Positions 3,202 through 43,812 of a stretch of 44,883 nt of DNA are shown here, in pieces; the first letter of the stretch is position 1, and each line of letters begins with the position of its first letter. A program made the position numbers and the translations under genes. Under the pieces are notes generated by a model that saw only the letters and a list, made by a program, of their open reading frames with translations, had not been told where the DNA came from and searched no databases. Origin of the DNA: a phage; the NCBI GenBank assembly GCA_030395855.1, contig GCA_030395855.1_4325.1. The stretch is one strand, 5' to 3'.

Positions 3202-4290
3202 ATGTGTAAAATCCGCTATGATAGTGTAAAGTTTAAAGCAACAATCGACGAGAATGGATTCTTGGTCGATACACCAGTAGTCGCACGTCTAGGTGTGCAA
3301 GTCTACTACATGGAGGACGGTCGCACGGTTCGAGAGTTTCGCCCAGCCGAGGAAGTCTTCAAGGATGAATCCCTCGCTAGTTACCAGGGTAAGCCAATGA
3401 CTCTTGATCATGTTTTCGTTAACTCAGAGAACGCTAAAGAGGTAGTGGTAGGTTCCGTTACTGGCAAAGCTGAGCCATTAGGTAGCTCAGTGGTTGCTCC
3501 GATTGTTGTTTACGATAACACAGCCATTCAGGAAGCTATGGCAGGTAACGCCAAGGAGTTATCCGTTGGCTACTCCGCAATTCTTGACGAAACTCCTGGC
3601 TGGGGCGACCCCATTACTGGCGAGTACGTCCTTAAATCTGATGGTGATCAATTCGATGCGCCAGAAGGATGGCAGGAGTTCGACGCAATTCAGCGTGACA
3701 TTAAAGTGAACCATCTCGCAATGGTATATCGCGGTCGCGCAGGTATTGCCAAATTGAATATGGACGGTGAGCAGGAAAACCCGTATACTACTGACGTTGA
3801 TATCAATAAAGAGGATAAACAGGAAATGACAGTTAAAATTAAACTGGACGGCGCGCAGGAATTTGAGGTCGCCCCGGAAATCGCTTCTCACATCGAAGCG
3901 CTGAACGCAAAGGCTGACACTGCAATCGCAGAGCGTGATGCACTGAAAGCCAAAGTAGATGCAATGCCTGCTGAAATCGAAGCTGCAGTTGCTAAAGCGA
4001 AAGCTGATGCTGATGCCTTGGCTGCTCTGGTCGCCGTTGCTGCTGAAGCTGGTGTTAAAGCTGATGGCCTGGATGCTAAAGGTATTAAAGTGGCCTACGT
4101 TAAAGAAGTCTCCGGCCTTGATGTTTCCGAGAAGTCTGACGCGTACATCGACGCAGCGTTCGACATTGCCAAAGAATCTGATAAAATGGCTGAAGTACGT
4201 AAAGCAACTACCGCTTCCGACAAATCTGACAGCGCCGATGAGCCTAAGAAATTAGACCCGCGTGCTCGTTTAGCTAAAATTAAGAAATAA
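3202..4290 (+). CDS. capsid scaffolding-like protein (Ala/Lys-rich coiled-coil C-terminus)
   Basis: RBS GAGGAG before ATG 3202; C-terminal low-complexity AEAKAD-type helical region; sits between head morphogenesis and capsid genes. Confidence 0.5.
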   Translation: MCKIRYDSVKFKATIDENGFLVDTPVVARLGVQVYYMEDGRTVREFRPAEEVFKDESLASYQGKPMTLDHVFVNSENAKEVVVGSVTGKAEPLGSSVVAPIVVYDNTAIQEAMAGNAKELSVGYSAILDETPGWGDPITGEYVLKSDGDQFDAPEGWQEFDAIQRDIKVNHLAMVYRGRAGIAKLNMDGEQENPYTTDVDINKEDKQEMTVKIKLDGAQEFEVAPEIASHIEALNAKADTAIAERDALKAKVDAMPAEIEAAVAKAKADADALAALVAVAAEAGVKADGLDAKGIKVAYVKEVSGLDVSEKSDAYIDAAFDIAKESDKMAEVRKATTASDKSDSADEPKKLDPRARLAKIKK

Positions 4291-25154: not shown

Positions 25155-25178
25155 TGTGTAGAGTCTCCATTTGTAAAA

Positions 25179-31631: not shown

Positions 31632-32105
31632 ATGATTTACGTATTTGATATCGATGGAACTATAGCTAATAATGAGCATAGAAGTCACCTCTTGCCATCC
31701 AGCGACCTTCACTTGACTTCAAGTTGGAAGGATTACAATAAAGCCTGTTCTGGAGACTCACCAATAATCCCAATGATAAAAATGATGAATGCTTTAGCTG
31801 AGTCATCTCAAGTTTACATAATGACCTCAAGAAGTGATGAAGTTGAATTGAGAACCCTTGAGTGGCTTCAGGATAATGAGATTGAGTGTGATTCGATATA
31901 CATGAGAAGTAGACATGACAACCGAAAAGATTACAAAATAAAAGAGCAATGGCTTAATGAAATCAGTGGTGGCGATAAAGGCAATGTGGTTATTTTTGAA
32001 GATAACCCAAAAGTAATTAAGCACCTAAGAAGTCGCGGATACACAGTTATGGCTGTATGTGAATATGAAGAACTACCTAAAGATTGCGAATCTCACGGAG
32101 AATGA
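31632..32105 (+). CDS. HAD-superfamily phosphatase (polynucleotide 3-phosphatase-like)
   Basis: N-terminal FDIDGT motif (HAD motif I); 157 aa. Confidence 0.6.
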   Translation: MIYVFDIDGTIANNEHRSHLLPSSDLHLTSSWKDYNKACSGDSPIIPMIKMMNALAESSQVYIMTSRSDEVELRTLEWLQDNEIECDSIYMRSRHDNRKDYKIKEQWLNEISGGDKGNVVIFEDNPKVIKHLRSRGYTVMAVCEYEELPKDCESHGE

Positions 32106-32107
32106 AA

Positions 32108-32662
32108 ATGACTAAATTATTTATCCTTAACGGACCGGCTGGAGTTGGCAAGGACACTATCGCAGATATTATGCTCGAGTTGGGTGTTGTTGATGGGAAA
32201 GTTTCATTCAAGTCACCAATGTTCGATGTAGCCAGGGGGATGCTATCAAAGGGTGAATTTGATTGGTTTATTGAGAACTACAACAACCGAGACGAGAAAG
32301 AAAAGCATCAAGAGATACTTGGCGGTAAAAGCATTCGAGAATTCATGATTTGGATTAGCGAGTCTGTAATGAAGCCAGTCTTTGGTGATGATGTCTTCGG
32401 TAAAAGGCTCGCCCAGTCACTTGGTGATGGTTGCTACATTTGCGCTGACGGTGGATTTACTAGCGAGATTAAGACACTGGTCGACGCTGGTGTTGAGGTC
32501 ACGTTAATTAGATTGCATAGGGAAGGGTACACATTTGATGGCGATAGTCGCTCATACATTCACGGGGTGTGCGCAAGAGAAATTGATGTTCGTGTTGTTG
32601 ATTGTGATATTAATGAAACATCAGCATTGGTAAGGCACGTAATAAATAGCACGAATTTCTAA
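32108..32662 (+). CDS. P-loop kinase, dNMP-kinase-like (paralog 1)
   Basis: Walker A GPAGVGKDT near N-terminus; about 45 percent identical by eye to the ORF at 39543..40160. Confidence 0.6.
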   Translation: MTKLFILNGPAGVGKDTIADIMLELGVVDGKVSFKSPMFDVARGMLSKGEFDWFIENYNNRDEKEKHQEILGGKSIREFMIWISESVMKPVFGDDVFGKRLAQSLGDGCYICADGGFTSEIKTLVDAGVEVTLIRLHREGYTFDGDSRSYIHGVCAREIDVRVVDCDINETSALVRHVINSTNF

Positions 32663-36871: not shown

Positions 36872-36914
36872 AATATACAGGAAAAGCCCCGAAGGGCCTT
36901 AGCAATTCGTGCTA
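36872..36914 (-). promoter_or_regulatory. conserved promoter/operator-like element copy (minus strand)
   Basis: Minus strand reads tagcacgaattgcta, 22-nt spacer containing a gccc-cgaa-gggc hairpin, TATATT, leader CATCGAAACGAA. Confidence 0.55.
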
Positions 36915-37063
36915 TTACGTGCCTGTTCTATCGCCTTGAGCATAATTTCGTGACTTTCTAGCAAGTCCTCGCGAAACCAATCCCCGCATGGCCAACCCTT
37001 ACCGCTGTAAGCTGCAATGGTGCAAAGATCGTAATAGTTGATATCTGATGGCAATAGCATCAT
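36899..37063 (-). CDS. small hypothetical protein (54 aa)
   Basis: Not in ORF track; RBS GAGGTG; ATGA coupling to upstream gene; its stop TAA lies inside the conserved palindrome. Confidence 0.35.
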   Translation of the reverse strand: MMLLPSDINYYDLCTIAAYSGKGWPCGDWFREDLLESHEIMLKAIEQARNSTNC

Positions 37064-38893: not shown

Positions 38894-39100
38894 ATGAAGA
38901 TGATGGCTGTAATTATCGAAGATTTCGTAGGTGACAGCACTGAGGTGTCGGCTTCAGTATATTACGACGGAATAGTGAGCATTGACATTGACACGGATAA
39001 CTTAGGTGATGAATGCACGCTAGCTCACTATACACCAGAGGCAGCGCGCAAACTTGCGGCGGCATTAATCCTGGCGGCGGACGAGGCGGATAAGCAATGA
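38894..39100 (+). CDS. hypothetical acidic protein (about 66-68 aa)
   Basis: Several in-frame ATGs at 38894-38905 after RBS GAAGAGG. Confidence 0.45.
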   Translation: MKMMAVIIEDFVGDSTEVSASVYYDGIVSIDIDTDNLGDECTLAHYTPEAARKLAAALILAADEADKQ

Positions 39101-39360
39101 AACGTTTAATGACATGCATGACCATTATTGCGGCAATGATTGCTCTTACTGGTTGCGAGAAGGCACCAGAGGTTCAGATTCAGTCAGGTGAATTCAATGT
39201 GGAGCGTCTATTCACAGTGGATGGATGTACCGCCTACAGATTCCGAGATAGCGATAGAGCCATCTACTACACAAATTGCCATGGCAGTACGCAGAGTGAG
39301 TACAGGTCCGGCAAGGTCATGAAGAAAGAAACAGTTCAGACAGATCGCACGAATTGGTAA
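39097..39360 (+). CDS. putative lipoprotein (87 aa)
   Basis: Signal peptide MKRLMTCMTIIAAMIALTGC with lipobox LTGC; ATGA overlap with upstream gene. Confidence 0.55.
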   Translation: MKRLMTCMTIIAAMIALTGCEKAPEVQIQSGEFNVERLFTVDGCTAYRFRDSDRAIYYTNCHGSTQSEYRSGKVMKKETVQTDRTNW

Positions 39361-39542: not shown

Positions 39543-40160
39543 ATGGCTAAAATCATCATTCTCAACGGTCCGGCTTCGGTTGGCAAAGACACTATCGGTA
39601 ACGCGCTTGCTAAAGATTACAATTGCATCCCGACGAGCTTTAAGATTCCTATGTTTGAGATCGCAGCGTCAATCCTGGGCGCTCGGGCGTTCAGCAAATT
39701 CATCACCGCTTATGATGATCGAGATCAGAAAGAGATGCCTCATGATTTTCTCGGTGGGAAAACCTGCCGTGAGTTCATGATCTGGATTAGCGAGTCGGTG
39801 GTCAAGCCGCTATTTGGCAATCAGCAGTTCGGTAAGCTGACGAGCGAGCGCATCCAGCTTTGTGACGAGGGATTTAGCTTTGTTTGCACTGATGGCGGTT
39901 TTCCTGATGAGGTTATCCGTCTGGTGGAAGACGGCCACTATGTTACCGTTGTGCGCCTATTTATGGATGGCAAGACCTTCGATGGAGATAGTCGTGATTA
40001 TATCCGCATCAAGGAATCGCATTTCCCTGATTATAAGCAATATAACGAGCATGACGTGCATCTGTTGAATGGTGATATTGACGGCGGCGTCATGGCAGTG
40101 GTTCGCGCCTGCGGTATCCGTCCTGCAATCGACGAGTGGGCCGACAATATTCCCTGGTAA
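39543..40160 (+). CDS. P-loop kinase, dNMP-kinase-like (paralog 2)
   Basis: Walker A GPASVGKDT; shared FMIWISESV and TFDGDSR blocks with the ORF at 32108..32662. Confidence 0.6.
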   Translation: MAKIIILNGPASVGKDTIGNALAKDYNCIPTSFKIPMFEIAASILGARAFSKFITAYDDRDQKEMPHDFLGGKTCREFMIWISESVVKPLFGNQQFGKLTSERIQLCDEGFSFVCTDGGFPDEVIRLVEDGHYVTVVRLFMDGKTFDGDSRDYIRIKESHFPDYKQYNEHDVHLLNGDIDGGVMAVVRACGIRPAIDEWADNIPW

Positions 40161-40161
40161 A

Positions 40162-40204
40162 TAGCACGAATTGCCAAACCCGCTCCGGCGGGTTTTGTTA
40201 TAGT
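40162..40204 (+). promoter_or_regulatory. conserved promoter/operator-like element copy with terminator hairpin in its spacer
   Basis: tagcacgaattgcca, spacer containing cccgc-tccg-gcggg + TTTTGTT, TATAGT at 40199-40204. Confidence 0.6.
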
Positions 40205-40232
40205 TAGTTAACACCAAACGAGAGGAAAGAAA

Positions 40233-40325
40233 ATGAAGCAATACCCATCAAGCGATCACCATAACGGTCACATCATGCAGTTCTATCGCCACAATCTGAA
40301 GACGAAAGGAGTATTTGGAAAATGA
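40233..40325 (+). CDS. small hypothetical protein (30 aa)
   Basis: Not in ORF track; RBS GAGAGGAAAG before ATG 40233; ATGA coupling to next gene. Confidence 0.3.
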
Positions 40326-40552
40326 TTACGATTAACCTGTCAGATAAAGACGCGGCGATGATAAAGAGTATCATCATGAAACCAATGTACTCCACGCTAT
40401 CATTCGAACAGATGCGCGTAGTGAAAGAAGTTGGCGCGCAGATTAATAATCAACAACTCGACGTTAGTGACTTCGAGTCATCGCGTCAATACGAGGCGCT
40501 AAGCGTTAATGCTGCGTACCTGACTAACTGGGATAAGGCGACAAAGAAATGA
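40322..40552 (+). CDS. hypothetical protein (76 aa)
   Basis: ORF track; start overlaps upstream stop. Confidence 0.45.
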
Positions 40553-40686
40553 TTTACATCCACACATACTACACTGGCAAGTTTAATAGCGTTAAGCACG
40601 CCATTGTTCACGATAGCTACGATAGCGCAAAGGCTCAATGGTTGGTTCTTGGCGGCGATATTAATTCATATAGAATCGCTAAATAG
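40549..40686 (+). CDS. small hypothetical protein (45 aa)
   Basis: Not in ORF track; ATGA coupling; stop TAG embedded in the next conserved element. Confidence 0.3.
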   Translation: MIYIHTYYTGKFNSVKHAIVHDSYDSAKAQWLVLGGDINSYRIAK

Positions 40687-40727
40687 CACGAATTGCTAAA
40701 ACAGTATTGGGGGTAATTTGTTATAGT
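40684..40727 (+). promoter_or_regulatory. conserved promoter/operator-like element copy
   Basis: tagcacgaattgcta, 23-nt spacer, TATAGT inside a GGGGGTAA/TTACCCC inverted repeat, leader CCCCATCGAAACGAA. Confidence 0.6.
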
Positions 40728-40757
40728 TACCCCATCGAAACGAACCAGGAATAAGAA

Positions 40758-40970
40758 ATGAAAATTGAAATTATCGACGTAGACTATGTTGCTGATGGCA
40801 ACACGCTTACCCTGGAAGAATGCGGATTTAAGGTTGGCGATGTGGTCGAGGTGTGCGGCGAATGCAATAATGGCGACTTGTCGATTCAGGCAATCCGTGA
40901 GACTAGGTTCGTCAATATCGGCAATGAAGTAAGTATCAGTGAGCATGAATACAAGGTGGTGGAAGAATGA
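40758..40970 (+). CDS. hypothetical protein (70 aa, Cys-x-x-Cys pair)
   Basis: RBS AGGAA before ATG 40758; CGEC motif. Confidence 0.5.
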   Translation: MKIEIIDVDYVADGNTLTLEECGFKVGDVVEVCGECNNGDLSIQAIRETRFVNIGNEVSISEHEYKVVEE

Positions 40971-41146
40971 GATTTCAACAATCAGAACCAAAGCTACAAG
41001 TAAACAACTTCGACGGATGCGCAACGTTCATCATTGCACAGGCTTGCGGAATGCGTGAAGACCCACAGGTTCACACCATCCATATGACCGAGGAACAGGC
41101 TCGGGAGATGGCTTACGAAATTCTTGAGCAATTGAACCGAATTTAA
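40967..41146 (+). CDS. small hypothetical protein (59 aa)
   Basis: Not in ORF track; ATGA coupling to upstream gene. Confidence 0.35.
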   Translation: MRFQQSEPKLQVNNFDGCATFIIAQACGMREDPQVHTIHMTEEQAREMAYEILEQLNRI

Positions 41147-41195
41147 AGCGCCTAAAACGCATTCTAACGAACTATAATTTAAGTAAGGTGATTCT

Positions 41196-41357
41196 ATGAT
41201 TGAGATTGTTTATGTAGGTGAGAGTGATTATGTGGCACTCATTCAACGCGGTGATGTGCTATTCGCAGAGTTGAGTGAGGATGGTAGTTGCTACATCGTA
41301 AAGAATAAGAATGGCGAGGATATTTACCTCTCAAAAGATGAGGTCATCATTTACTAA
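41196..41357 (+). CDS. small hypothetical protein (53 aa)
   Basis: Not in ORF track; RBS AAGGTG before ATG 41196. Confidence 0.35.
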   Translation: MIEIVYVGESDYVALIQRGDVLFAELSEDGSCYIVKNKNGEDIYLSKDEVIIY

Positions 41358-41488
41358 TGGATAACTACGAATCACCAGTAGAGTGGTGCAAGCGAATGCA
41401 GGACAAAGCCAAAACGGGCGAAGATGCTATGGCTTACTACGAGCTGGCGCAAATTTGGATGGAGAGGGAGGACAAAAGCAATGGTTAA
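41357..41488 (+). CDS. small hypothetical protein (43 aa)
   Basis: Not in ORF track; TAATG stop/start overlap with upstream ORF. Confidence 0.3.
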   Translation: MDNYESPVEWCKRMQDKAKTGEDAMAYYELAQIWMEREDKSNG

Positions 41489-41633
41489 CACTTGCATTTA
41501 TTTTTATGGACATGAATTTATTGATGACTTAATGTACTTTCACGAAAAGTATGGCGACACATTCGAATGCGATGGTGACAGTCTTGAGGTTCTGGGAACA
41601 TTCAATAGAGGTGGCAAAAATGAGGCTCACTGA
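41481..41633 (+). CDS. small hypothetical protein (50 aa)
   Basis: RBS GGAGG before ATG 41481; part of track ORF 41424..41633. Confidence 0.35.
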   Translation: MVNTCIYFYGHEFIDDLMYFHEKYGDTFECDGDSLEVLGTFNRGGKNEAH

Positions 41634-41763
41634 ATATGTAATAGCGTGCGAGAGACTCGTCTTCGATATGAAGACTTTCCACTGGTTCATCATTAAGGAT
41701 TTAGTTAAGCCTTATAAGAAAGGCGTTGCGCCAGAGGCTTTTGTTAAGTCATTCTATAAATAG
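41620..41763 (+). CDS. small hypothetical protein (47 aa)
   Basis: RBS GAGGTGG before ATG 41620; stop TAG embedded in the next conserved element. Confidence 0.35.
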   Translation: MRLTEYVIACERLVFDMKTFHWFIIKDLVKPYKKGVAPEAFVKSFYK

Positions 41764-41803
41764 CACGAATTGCTAAATGCAGTCGCCACGGATGGCATAT
41801 AAT
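41761..41803 (+). promoter_or_regulatory. conserved promoter/operator-like element copy
   Basis: tagcacgaattgcta, 22-nt spacer, TATAAT. Confidence 0.6.
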
Positions 41804-41833
41804 TACCACATCAACACAACGAGAGATTGAGAT

Positions 41834-41944
41834 ATGACAAGTTATGGCTCTTACACACTTGGTGAGCTATATGACGCTTACTCATGGGGTGGTTCGGCAT
41901 CACAATGCGATGCAGACGCAAAGACAGTAATCATTGAGGGTTGA
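41834..41944 (+). CDS. small hypothetical protein (36 aa)
   Basis: Not in ORF track; RBS GAGAG before ATG 41834. Confidence 0.3.
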   Translation: MTSYGSYTLGELYDAYSWGGSASQCDADAKTVIIEG

Positions 41945-41947
41945 ATA

Positions 41948-42187
41948 ATGTTCGGACTAAATGAAGCGATGTTAAACGCAGTCAAGGGTCAGGCCAAAAA
42001 ACTAAACGATAAGTATGAGTCACTAGGTAAGCTGGACCGCAAGAATGACAAGTTGGTTGCTGGAGTTATCACTGAGATTTGGGAGCCTGTTTCTACAGTG
42101 ATTAGCAGGGATCGATTTGTTTGGGTGGCTGGTTATTTGCGAGGCCTGGTTGGTCATGACGAGAATGGGAATAGCCTTTATGAGTGA
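41948..42187 (+). CDS. hypothetical protein (79 aa)
   Basis: RBS GAGGG before ATG 41948. Confidence 0.5.
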   Translation: MFGLNEAMLNAVKGQAKKLNDKYESLGKLDRKNDKLVAGVITEIWEPVSTVISRDRFVWVAGYLRGLVGHDENGNSLYE

Positions 42188-42278
42188 GTTAACAATCTGG
42201 TTTATCGCGGGGCTGATTACTTGGGCTTACTTTTTAATCGTTTGGATGTGGATTGTTAAAAAGAGCTTGCATCACTGA
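42180..42278 (+). CDS. small hydrophobic protein (32 aa, putative membrane peptide)
   Basis: Not in ORF track; single hydrophobic helix IWFIAGLITWAYFLIVWMWIV; overlaps upstream stop. Confidence 0.3.
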   Translation: MSELTIWFIAGLITWAYFLIVWMWIVKKSLHH

Positions 42279-42579
42279 CCGGAATTATCTAACATTAACC
42301 ACGTAGACAAACAAAGCCATCCAAGATGGAGCGGCGCACGGAGCGAAACTACTAAGTCCGTTGCTCATTAAGTAGCGTATGCGGCACACATGGCCAGTGA
42401 GGGTAAGTCGTAAACCTCAATAAGTCGGCCCCAAGTCGAATAGTACGAGTCGACGTAAGGTTGCATAACATCCAAGTATGAGATTTATTCTCTTAGGGAC
42501 TTGTAAGACCTAGCGCAAATAGGCAAATCAAATCGGTCGTTTCAGTCGACTCCGGAGCCGTAACCGGAACCCATTCAAA

Positions 42580-42657
42580 GATCTGCTAGCTCAACAGGAA
42601 AGAAGCAACGACCTTCTAAGTCGTAGGTTACTGGTTCGAATCCAGTGCGGATCGCCA
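42580..42657 (+). tRNA. tRNA-Arg (anticodon UCU), with encoded CCA
   Basis: Folded by eye: acceptor stem GATCTGC/GCGGATC (one G-U), anticodon stem ACGAC/GTCGT, loop CTTCTAA (anticodon TCT at 42615-42617), T arm ACTGG-TTCGAAT-CCAGT, discriminator G, CCA. Confidence 0.8.
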
Positions 42658-42672
42658 ATTAAGGAGTTCATT

Positions 42673-42855
42673 ATGTGGGATGTGAAACTGTCCATTCGCC
42701 TAATGGGCCGCTCATGCAAGAATTGCACTCAAGATTACATCGCGTCAGTTGCCGCAATCAGCGCTGAGGATGCGGTAGCGAAAGTAAAAGAGATGTCAGG
42801 CGCTGACCCTGATACTCACAAATTCCTGGTAGCTTACGTTCGTGAGCGAAAGTAA
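42673..42855 (+). CDS. hypothetical protein (60 aa)
   Basis: Strong RBS AAGGAG before ATG 42673; terminator downstream. Confidence 0.5.
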   Translation: MWDVKLSIRLMGRSCKNCTQDYIASVAAISAEDAVAKVKEMSGADPDTHKFLVAYVRERK

Positions 42856-42900
42856 AAAAGTGTTATACCCTCGTTAAGTTTCGTTTCTCTCGTTGTTTTC

Positions 42901-42925
42901 AGCCCTCGCTTGAGGGCTTTTTTTC
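42901..42925 (+). terminator. intrinsic terminator
   Basis: Hairpin agccctc-gcttg-agggct followed by T7. Confidence 0.75.
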
Positions 42926-42934
42926 GTAAGCATG

Positions 42935-42963
42935 TTGACAATAATATATAGGTGCATTAGTAT
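42935..42963 (+). promoter_or_regulatory. sigma70-like promoter (consensus -35)
   Basis: TTGACA (42935-42940), 17-nt spacer, TAGTAT (42958-42963). Confidence 0.55.
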
Positions 42964-43004
42964 TATCTCATCGGGGCGACCCACTAACCAGAAGGAGATT
43001 CAAA

Positions 43005-43305: not shown

Positions 43306-43812
43306 ATGAGCAAAGCAGCATTAAAGATGGGTGAGGGAAATTTCAAGGCGCTCTACAACAAGAAGTATGGCGATATTGCTATGGTGGCAATCAACCGCAA
43401 GTACACGCCTGAGGAAGTTTTCGATTTCGCAGTGAGATATTTCTCCTGGGCAGAGAGCGAGGCAATCAAAGCTATTGAGACGGCGGCTTTTCAGGGCGTA
43501 GTTAGTGAAAACCTTGTACACAAGCCTCGAGTGTTCACCTTAACTGGCCTGGCGCTCTTCATGGGTGTTAACATCAATAGATTCGCTAAATGGCGTACTG
43601 AGGCTGGATACTCTGATGTGATGGAATTCATTGATAACGTAATCTACGAGCAAAAATATCAGCTTGGCGTTGCAGGCATCATCAACTCCACCATCGTTGG
43701 TAAAGAGCTTGGCATTGATAAGCCGCAGGAGATTAAGATTAGCAACAACTCCACAGCTAACGACGTTGATAGCATGAAGGAAGCGCTAGAGTCTGTGATT
43801 AGTAAGCTATAA
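43306..43812 (+). CDS. terminase small subunit
   Basis: 168-aa ORF, RBS AAAGGAGGA, immediately upstream of the large terminase gene. Confidence 0.6.
   Translation: MSKAALKMGEGNFKALYNKKYGDIAMVAINRKYTPEEVFDFAVRYFSWAESEAIKAIETAAFQGVVSENLVHKPRVFTLTGLALFMGVNINRFAKWRTEAGYSDVMEFIDNVIYEQKYQLGVAGIINSTIVGKELGIDKPQEIKISNNSTANDVDSMKEALESVISKL

Follow-up and report, generated by a model that had tools for sequence, protein, structure and literature searches.

The DNA stretch analyzed here (the window) is a phage sequence of 44,883 nt, contig GCA_030395855.1_4325.1, and the region under study is an array of very small open reading frames (ORFs) at positions 40233-42278 on the + strand. The array consists of 12 tiled ORFs of 30 to 79 amino acids (aa), designated O1 to O12. 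The region is deduced, with good confidence, to be the small accessory-gene cluster of T1/Rtp-like coliphages located just upstream of the tRNA-Arg and terminase genes, probably arranged in three units and including a Stp-like peptide, O1. The ORFs are as follows.

40233-40325, + strand: O1, 30 aa, Stp homologue
40322-40552, + strand: O2, 76 aa, DUF7180 (PF23805), phrog_16063; ATGA-coupled to O1
40549-40686, + strand: O3, 45 aa, phrog_3955 (Rtp rtp9/T1 gp04-like); ATGA-coupled to O2
40758-40970, + strand: O4, 70 aa, acidic, phrog_5684; accessory
40967-41146, + strand: O5, 59 aa, phrog_7411 (rtp11-like); core; ATGA-coupled to O4
41196-41357, + strand: O6, 53 aa, acidic, phrog_38524; accessory
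41357-41488, + strand: O7, 43 aa, phrog_1312 (rtp12-like); core; TAATG overlap with O6
41481-41633, + strand: O8, 50 aa, start revised from 41424, no PHROG; movable cassette gene
41620-41763, + strand: O9, 47 aa, start revised from 41551, basic, phrog_22596 (rtp13-like); core
41834-41944, + strand: O10, 36 aa, rare accessory gene with a weak ribosome-binding site (RBS)
41948-42187, + strand: O11, 79 aa, phrog_303 (rtp15/T1 gp59-like); core
42180-42278, + strand: O12, 32 aa, hydrophobic; only the first 21 or 22 codons kept as an ORF in relatives

An earlier reading made from the letters alone (the sequence-only reading) had described at least 11 small coupled ORFs in this region. That description was confirmed, since 12 ORFs tile the region and stop and start codons overlap, by 1 to 14 nt, at seven of the 11 junctions. 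The overlaps are of 4 nt (ATGA) at O1/O2, O2/O3, and O4/O5, of 1 nt (TAATG) at O6/O7, of 8 nt at O7/O8 and O11/O12, and of 14 nt at O8/O9, and they are conserved among relatives. The remaining junctions are gaps of 3 nt (O10/O11), 49 nt (O5/O6), 70 nt (O9/O10), and 71 nt (O3/O4). ATG-initiated ORFs of at least 30 aa covered 90.6% of the + strand, compared to 47.7% of the - strand and 35.1 ± 11.5% (maximum, 70.6%) in a control set of 500 dinucleotide shuffles.

The Shine-Dalgarno pairing energies of the 12 ORFs ranged from -3.0 to -11.4 kcal/mol, with a recognizable Shine-Dalgarno sequence at most starts, and seven of the 12 starts were within the best 17% of all neighborhood ATGs by this energy. 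The strongest RBS was that of O8 (-11.4 kcal/mol), and the weakest were those of O10 (-3.0 kcal/mol) and O12 (-4.2 kcal/mol). The ORF track had listed ORFs starting at 41424 (69 aa) and 41551 (70 aa), for which the starts were revised to 41481 (50 aa) and 41620 (47 aa), respectively. O8 and O9 most likely begin at these revised positions, which were preferred because they are conserved and annotated in relatives and have the strongest RBSs.

Conservation of the ORFs in related phages

The closest DNA matches of positions 40100-42400 were Braunvirinae coliphages (Drexlerviridae), namely, vB_EcoS_FP, Veterinaerplatzvirus T145P1, BEK6, BEK2, IME253, and Rtp, with 81 to 88% identity across 41 to 80% of the query. 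When the terminase large subunit was used as the query, it matched the window at both ends, over the last 950 nt and the first 630 nt. The window is therefore taken to be a complete, circularly permuted Rtp-like coliphage genome (Drexlerviridae, Braunvirinae), opened inside terL. The array lies approximately 1 kb upstream of terS (43306-43812), co-directional with terS/terL. In the numbering of phage Rtp, it forms the left end of the genome, genes rtp6 to rtp15, and its previous placement in a "right" early region was thus an artifact of the cut point of the window.

The homologous region was collected from 11 related phages and compared by tblastn and by codon-level substitution counts. O2, O3, O5, O7, and O11 were present in all 11 relatives and O9 was present in 10. 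O1 was found in six, O4 in four, O6 in four together with one distant copy, and O8 at this slot in three, with two further copies at another slot. Wherever O1 to O9 and O11 occur in the relatives, their start and stop codons are at matching positions. The pooled ratio of nonsynonymous to synonymous substitution rates (dN/dS) for these 10 ORFs was 0.08 to 0.23 at a synonymous divergence of 0.31 to 0.68, which demonstrates clear purifying selection on the proteins. Individual values were 0.08 for O1, 0.11 for O2, 0.15 for O3, 0.20 for O4, 0.08 for O5, 0.19 for O6, 0.23 for O7, 0.21 for O8, and 0.10 for O9. Homologues of O8 were found in 23 phage records.

O10 had only three close homologues, in BEK2, BEK3, and phiA2-1 (83% identity), where it is unannotated. 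By tblastn, however, it was matched at 52 to 58% amino acid identity in 27 further phage records, three of which are named Kagunavirus and several of which carry it as an annotated coding sequence. One such gene, Bas71_0064, has the same start codon as O10, is identical at 18 of 34 residues, and is itself found in a similar small-gene array. Conservation of the micro-ORFs in related phages had been proposed as a check by the sequence-only reading. Ten of the 12 were found to be kept in frame under purifying selection and O10 to be conserved at the protein level in other siphoviruses, so that, as judged by comparative analysis, 11 of the 12 ORFs are real genes.

These data bear directly on the alternative that the micro-ORFs are mostly chance frames or annotation noise in a noncoding or regulatory stretch. 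Very short ORFs do occur by chance, the RBSs of O10 and O12 are weak, and the frame of O12 is broken in relatives. Against this, the coverage of 90.6% was never reached by the 500 shuffles (at most 70.6%), starts, stops, and low dN/dS values are kept for 10 ORFs, and O10 is retained in another phage group. In addition, the sole long antisense ORF (40635-41024, 129 aa) was rejected as spurious, being interrupted by several stops in relatives. Conservation refutes the alternative for 11 of the 12 ORFs, and we regard it as extremely improbable for the array.

The expectation that such genes are usually unannotated was borne out for the smallest ORFs and not for the majority, as O2 to O9 and O11 are annotated as hypothetical in relatives and, except for O8, belong to PHROG families. 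O1 is missing from the annotations of FP, BEK6, and BEK2 and from most T4-like records, while O12 is missing almost everywhere. Thus, three of the smallest ORFs (O1, O10, and O12) have been missed by many published annotations, and the finding that 11 of 12 proposed ORFs pass conservation tests indicates that sequence reading alone can recover real micro-genes.

The remaining ORF, O12, requires separate consideration. Its maximum 19-residue Kyte-Doolittle mean was 2.11, which is enough for a membrane span, while the next highest ORF reached 1.06; hence, only one single-helix hydrophobic peptide is present and not two, as had been stated. Codon 22 of O12 is TGG in the window and TAG in Rtp, EC3a, BEK6, IME253, ZL19, SU57, and FP, with FP also having a 1-nt deletion that shifts the frame. 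The 32-aa form proposed earlier for the ORF at 42180 is therefore specific to this genome, and relatives encode 21 or 22 aa. The shorter hydrophobic ORF of 21 or 22 codons is kept in nine of 10 relatives, in three of them with unrelated downstream DNA. These three, T145P1, BEK2, and JulesPiccard, diverge completely after codon 18 yet retain a 22-codon hydrophobic ORF (MSELTIWFIAGLITWAYFMVAA), which ends in an ATGA overlap with an inserted gene. The insert is approximately 235 to 255 nt long and carries at least one small gene, the product of which starts with MRTL (T145P1, ~3440-3676; BEK2, ~3211-3465; JulesPiccard, ~3928-4176).

The substitution pattern of O12 differs from that of its neighbors. 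Synonymous divergence (pS) was 0.14, compared to 0.31 to 0.68 in neighboring genes, dN/dS was 0.41 from few substitutions, and the variable sites were distributed 4/2/5 over the three codon positions. The block 42179-42386 is about 86 to 96% identical in all relatives, with conservation unchanged past the stop codon of the relatives. A plausible sigma-70 promoter overlaps the last codons of O12:

42267-42295, + strand: sigma-70-like promoter TTGCAT-17 nt-TAACAT (TAATAT variant) with an upstream A-tract, facing the leader and tRNA-Arg

It could accordingly be argued that O12 is not a functional 32-aa protein and that the frame, or its last 11 codons, is incidental to a recombination junction and to the tRNA-Arg promoter and leader. 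This is supported by the TAG codon of the seven relatives and the FP frameshift, by the low synonymous divergence and the dN/dS of 0.41, and by the equal conservation of the nucleotides past the relatives' stop, which form TTGCAT-17 nt-TAAYAT and an A-tract. The segment moreover opens with ATGAGTGA, a motif that is likewise found flanking gene insertions in ZL19, SU57, FP, and JulesPiccard. On the other hand, the amino acid changes in O12 are conservative, and the 22-codon ORF persists in T145P1, BEK2, and JulesPiccard in front of wholly different DNA. We consider the incidental interpretation a serious possibility, although one that falls somewhat short of even. The hydrophobic micro-ORF of 21 or 22 aa is probably real and unannotated, and the 11-codon extension is read here as a recent read-through into promoter DNA.

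Downstream of O12, approximately 300 nt (42279-42579) contain no ORF and extend to the only tRNA of the genome:

42580-42657: tRNA-Arg(TCT), with the array just upstream

These 300 nt, which open with the promoter-like TTGCAT-17-TAACAT sequence, are ~86 to 96% conserved in relatives, far above the synonymous sites of the neighbors. Within them, a hairpin shows a compensated change, reading CCATC-CAA-GATGG in the window and GCCAC-CAA-GTGGC in Rtp, FP, EC3a, and BEK6. The segment may represent a structured leader or a small RNA. It had no match in Rfam, which detected nothing besides tRNA-Arg in a scan of 40100-43000. A segment of ~117 nt within it (42387-42503) is absent from most relatives, in which the flanks are contiguous, and FP has part of it.

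O1, O2, and the search for functions

O1 matched the Pfam family PF08133 (anticodon nuclease activator family) at 51.1 bits (cutoff, 25; E value, 1e-13), with residues 7-30 aligned to profile positions 2-25 of 26, and matched phrog_6763 with an E value of 3.7e-14. Compared to the Stp of RB32/T4, 18 of 24 residues were identical, including 12 of 17 within T4 residues 2-18. A tblastn search with O1 retrieved 561 phage records, 543 at 60 to 80% identity and 18 at 80% or above. Among the matches listed, nearly all of those in the 60 to 80% group were genomes of ~165 to 170 kb, in which the annotated ones name stp, while the two listed at 80% or above were phages of 43 to 48 kb, including ZL19. These profile and residue matches identify O1 as a homologue of T4 Stp. 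Since rtp6 of phage Rtp already carries a Stp-type annotation, the assignment is not a new one; it places the Stp-type peptide in one more siphovirus and bears on the host range of T1-like phages where strains have type IC restriction-modification or PrrC.

The 26-residue Stp of T4 is a delayed-early protein that inhibits the type IC enzymes EcoprrI and EcoR124I, and not type IA enzymes, and its N-proximal 18 residues have been implicated in function (PMC3014915). Inhibition of the type IC enzyme by Stp unmasks the latent tRNA-Lys anticodon nuclease PrrC, which T4 answers with polynucleotide kinase and RNA ligase 1 (PMC3014915). By homology, O1 is predicted to inhibit EcoprrI/EcoR124I-like type IC restriction enzymes by binding them and, in hosts with prrC, to turn on the tRNA-Lys anticodon nuclease. 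The likeness to T4 Stp comprises a PF08133 match at twice the cutoff, the shared core, and the form of a stand-alone micro-gene of similar size. The differences are that O1 is 30 aa rather than 26 aa, with a 5-residue N-terminal extension, and that T4 stp lies between ndd and ac, whereas O1 is found in a 45-kb siphovirus and is ATGA-coupled to the DUF7180 gene. Furthermore, T4 Stp is partnered by RNA ligase 1, whereas no ligase was recognized among the scanned ORFs of this genome, a scan that did not take in every ORF.

With the recognition sequences that we take to be those of these enzymes, the genome contains nine EcoR124I, eight EcoprrI, and 26 EcoDXXI sites. These are about the expected numbers, and the genome would therefore be a substrate for such type IC enzymes. 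A test for site avoidance detected no significant depletion of type IA, IB, or IC sites in the genome.

Immediately upstream of O1 is a P-loop kinase of phrog_139 (39543-40160), for which a PDB sequence search gave nothing meaningful. A paralogous phrog_139 P-loop kinase is located at 32084-32662, its start overlapped by a PNKP-type HAD phosphatase (31632-32105), and the latter two together resemble a split polynucleotide kinase-phosphatase. A 376-aa ORF beside the PNKP-like phosphatase was considered as an RNA ligase and was rejected, as it is a DNA repair exonuclease. Further upstream of the array, an 87-aa protein (39097-39360) carries a lipoprotein-type signal (ALTGC), shares 87% identity with Rtp rtp3, and may be a lipoprotein of the superinfection-exclusion type.

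O2 matched PF23805 (DUF7180) at 84 bits (cutoff, 27), with residues 1-76 on profile positions 1-73 of 79. Its 325 homologues, as far as listed, all belong to PF23805 and, where a source is named, come from Escherichia coli phages with one exception. The AlphaFold2 model of O2 was of low confidence (predicted local distance difference test, 69.7; predicted template modeling score, 0.44) and too poor for a fold search. PDB sequence searches with O2 and O11 gave nothing meaningful, and homologue searches with the same two proteins returned only close phage relatives without names. Scans of all of the ORFs against Pfam, PHROGs, and NCBIfam placed nine of the 12 in PHROG families and supplied names for only O1 (Stp) and O2 (DUF). 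The sequence-only reading had suggested that micro-proteins of this kind act on host processes or defense systems; this held for O1, by homology to the Stp family, while no function was assignable to the other 11.

Repeat-associated promoter-like elements

An 18-nt repeat, ATAGCACGAATTGCYAAA, occurs in 15 copies in the genome at up to three mismatches, compared to 0.12 expected. The copies are at 686, 8539, 19706(-), 21348, 25178, 26220(-), 29225, 32646, 36898(-), 37543(-), 38826, 39344, 40161, 40683, and 41760. Fourteen of the 15 are exactly 20 to 21 nt upstream of a TATnnT hexamer, mostly TATAGT, the copy at 25178 being without a -10. Downstream of the -10-like hexamer there is usually a conserved leader, TTACyCCATCGAAACGAA, then an RBS, and then an ATG approximately 75 nt from the repeat. 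The repeat is itself an inverted repeat, TAGCA-N5-TGCTA, in which TTGCTA stands 22 to 23 nt from the -10, and a -35 at the usual distance is thus lacking. On putative start positions, the palindrome would be centered near -42, as for class II activator sites. Three copies fall within the array, with one weak internal candidate between the second and third.

40161-40204, + strand: promoter-like P1; repeat ATAGCACGAATTGCCAAA at 40161-40178, 20-nt spacer, TATAGT at 40199-40204
40683-40727, + strand: promoter-like P2; repeat ATAGCACGAATTGCTAAA at 40683-40700, 21-nt spacer, TATAGT at 40722-40727
41173-41178, + strand: possible internal promoter, TATAAT hexamer in the O5/O6 gap; weak
41760-41803, + strand: promoter-like P3; repeat ATAGCACGAATTGCTAAA at 41760-41777, 20-nt spacer, TATAAT at 41798-41803

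The copies at 40161, 40683, and 41760 are all exact; each lies upstream of an ATG, that of O1 by 72 nt, that of O4 by 75 nt, and that of O10 by 74 nt. The stop codon of O3 is inside the P2 repeat, and that of O9 is inside the P3 repeat. The P1 arrangement was found at the matching place in nine of the 11 relatives, and all three array copies were found at matching junctions with similar spacers. In SU57, a BPROM promoter is annotated at the equivalent of the O5/O6 gap. A terminator-like hairpin (40176-40195) was observed in the spacer of P1, and a GC-rich spacer hairpin was also seen in the 36898-36915 (-) region. With the spacer itself a terminator-like hairpin in at least these two elements, upstream termination and the next initiation would overlap.

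Since the three copies stand at the array start or at larger gaps, the array is read as three transcription units, which are probably polycistronic and comprise O1 to O3, O4 to O9, and O10 to O12. Each unit would start approximately 72 to 75 nt downstream of the repeat, which is followed after 20 to 21 nt by TATAGT or TATAAT. Within units, most genes overlap the preceding stop codon, where ribosomes could restart on the next gene, and through such restarts genes with weak RBSs could be made.

This repeat has been described previously. In the TLS re-annotation, a 21-nt direct repeat, aaATAGCACnnnTTGnTAAAA, is reported at 21 TLS sites, ~76 nt upstream of start codons, and also in T1, Rtp, and Rogue1, with its function left open as a stoperator, enhancer, or UP element (PMC11447400). 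Compared to that account, the repeat of the window has the same consensus, the same orientation with transcription, and a similar distance (~75 nt) to start codons. The copies analyzed here differ in standing at a fixed 20 to 21 nt from a -10-like hexamer without a normally spaced -35, while neither a fixed -10 spacing nor a palindrome is described in the TLS section that reports the repeat (PMC11447400).

Slot content, proposed roles, and comparison with known clusters

Among close relatives, the core genes O2, O3, O5, O7, O9, and O11 alternate with slots of varying content. Behind P1, the first slot is occupied by Stp in six relatives and by unrelated genes of 42 to 63 aa in four more. O4 or rtp10-like genes occupy the slot behind P2, which can also be empty; the P3 slot contains O10, rtp14, or other genes, and additional genes may follow O11. 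O8 is located between O7 and O9 here and in T145P1, BEK2, and SU57 and before O11 in EC3a and ACG-M12. On these comparisons, the five cassette genes (O1, O4, O6, O8, and O10) are considered exchangeable, in fixed slots. No function emerged when the replacements of O1, O4, and O10 in relatives, and the genes inserted after O11, were scanned against PHROGs. Such a slot pattern is typical of accessory host-interaction genes and is the main, indirect argument that the other ORFs also act on the host. The 11 proteins besides O1 would most likely be small binders of host or phage proteins, serving host takeover or anti-defense.

A different interpretation of the same cluster is that it is real but neither early nor host directed and that it encodes regulators internal to the phage, or accessory proteins for packaging or morphogenesis that are expressed with the terminase genes. 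The cluster is indeed co-directional with terS/terL at a distance of ~1 kb, and its promoter-like elements are of the same repeat class as those before other modules. However, O1 belongs to the Stp family, whose T4 member is a delayed-early anti-restriction peptide directed at the host, and half of the genes are dispensable cassettes that vary among close relatives, as is typical of host-interaction rather than morphogenesis genes. Furthermore, the authors of the SU57 study identified the small genes at the genome ends as the part not shared between relatives (PMC7718038). The interpretation is therefore considered unlikely, and the accessory-gene cluster with a host-directed Stp-like peptide is preferred.

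Several points nevertheless weigh against this preference. The repeat class precedes genes all round the genome, and the sequence therefore gives no mark of the cluster as early. The Stp gene is missing from five of the 11 relatives and is thus dispensable. No RNA ligase was recognized among the ORFs scanned, and if none is present, Stp would be double-edged and would work against the phage on prr+ hosts, in keeping with its absence from those five. Searches of Pfam, PHROGs, NCBIfam, and PDB sequences and the fold search provided no function for 11 of the 12 proteins, and the constraint on O12 is at the nucleotide level and not clearly at the protein level. Finally, the transcription starts, the early timing, the actual translational coupling, the activity of the Stp homologue, and the roles of the other ORFs are matters that we infer, and our literature search turned up neither a transcriptome nor a ribosome-profiling study for any Drexlerviridae phage.

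The alternation of Stp with unrelated orphans of 42 to 63 aa in the first slot suggests a further, doubtful possibility, namely, that the fixed slots, above all the first after P1, are an anti-defense hot spot. On this view, O4, O6, O8, O10, their replacements, and the peptide of 21 to 22 aa (32 aa in the window) would represent new inhibitors of defense or membrane functions in E. coli.

Packed and often overlapping very small genes are also a feature of the class I genes 0.3 to 0.7 of T7, T5's pre-early genes, and the ndd-stp-ac region of T4, and some proteins of such early micro-gene clusters block host defenses or host machinery. For T5, toxicity of pre-early genes has been described (PMC13250531). 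The present cluster resembles these early clusters in its tight packing and shares no sequence relationship with them except through Stp.

A close correspondence is that with rtp6 to rtp15 of Rtp and with the Braunvirinae phages FP, BEK6, SU57, ACG-M12, and CEB_EC3a, which have the same gene order and the three repeat-marked junctions. The Rtp homologues are rtp6 (O1), rtp7 (O2), rtp9 (O3), rtp11 (O5), rtp12 (O7), rtp13 (O9), and rtp15 (O11). Rtp is without O4, O6, O8, and O10, whereas the genome analyzed here is without rtp8, rtp10, and rtp14, and the small hydrophobic ORF, of 21 codons there, has 32 codons here through the loss of a stop codon. Taken as a whole, the cluster is a normal part of T1-like phage genomes, as a specialist would expect at this position in a member of the Braunvirinae.

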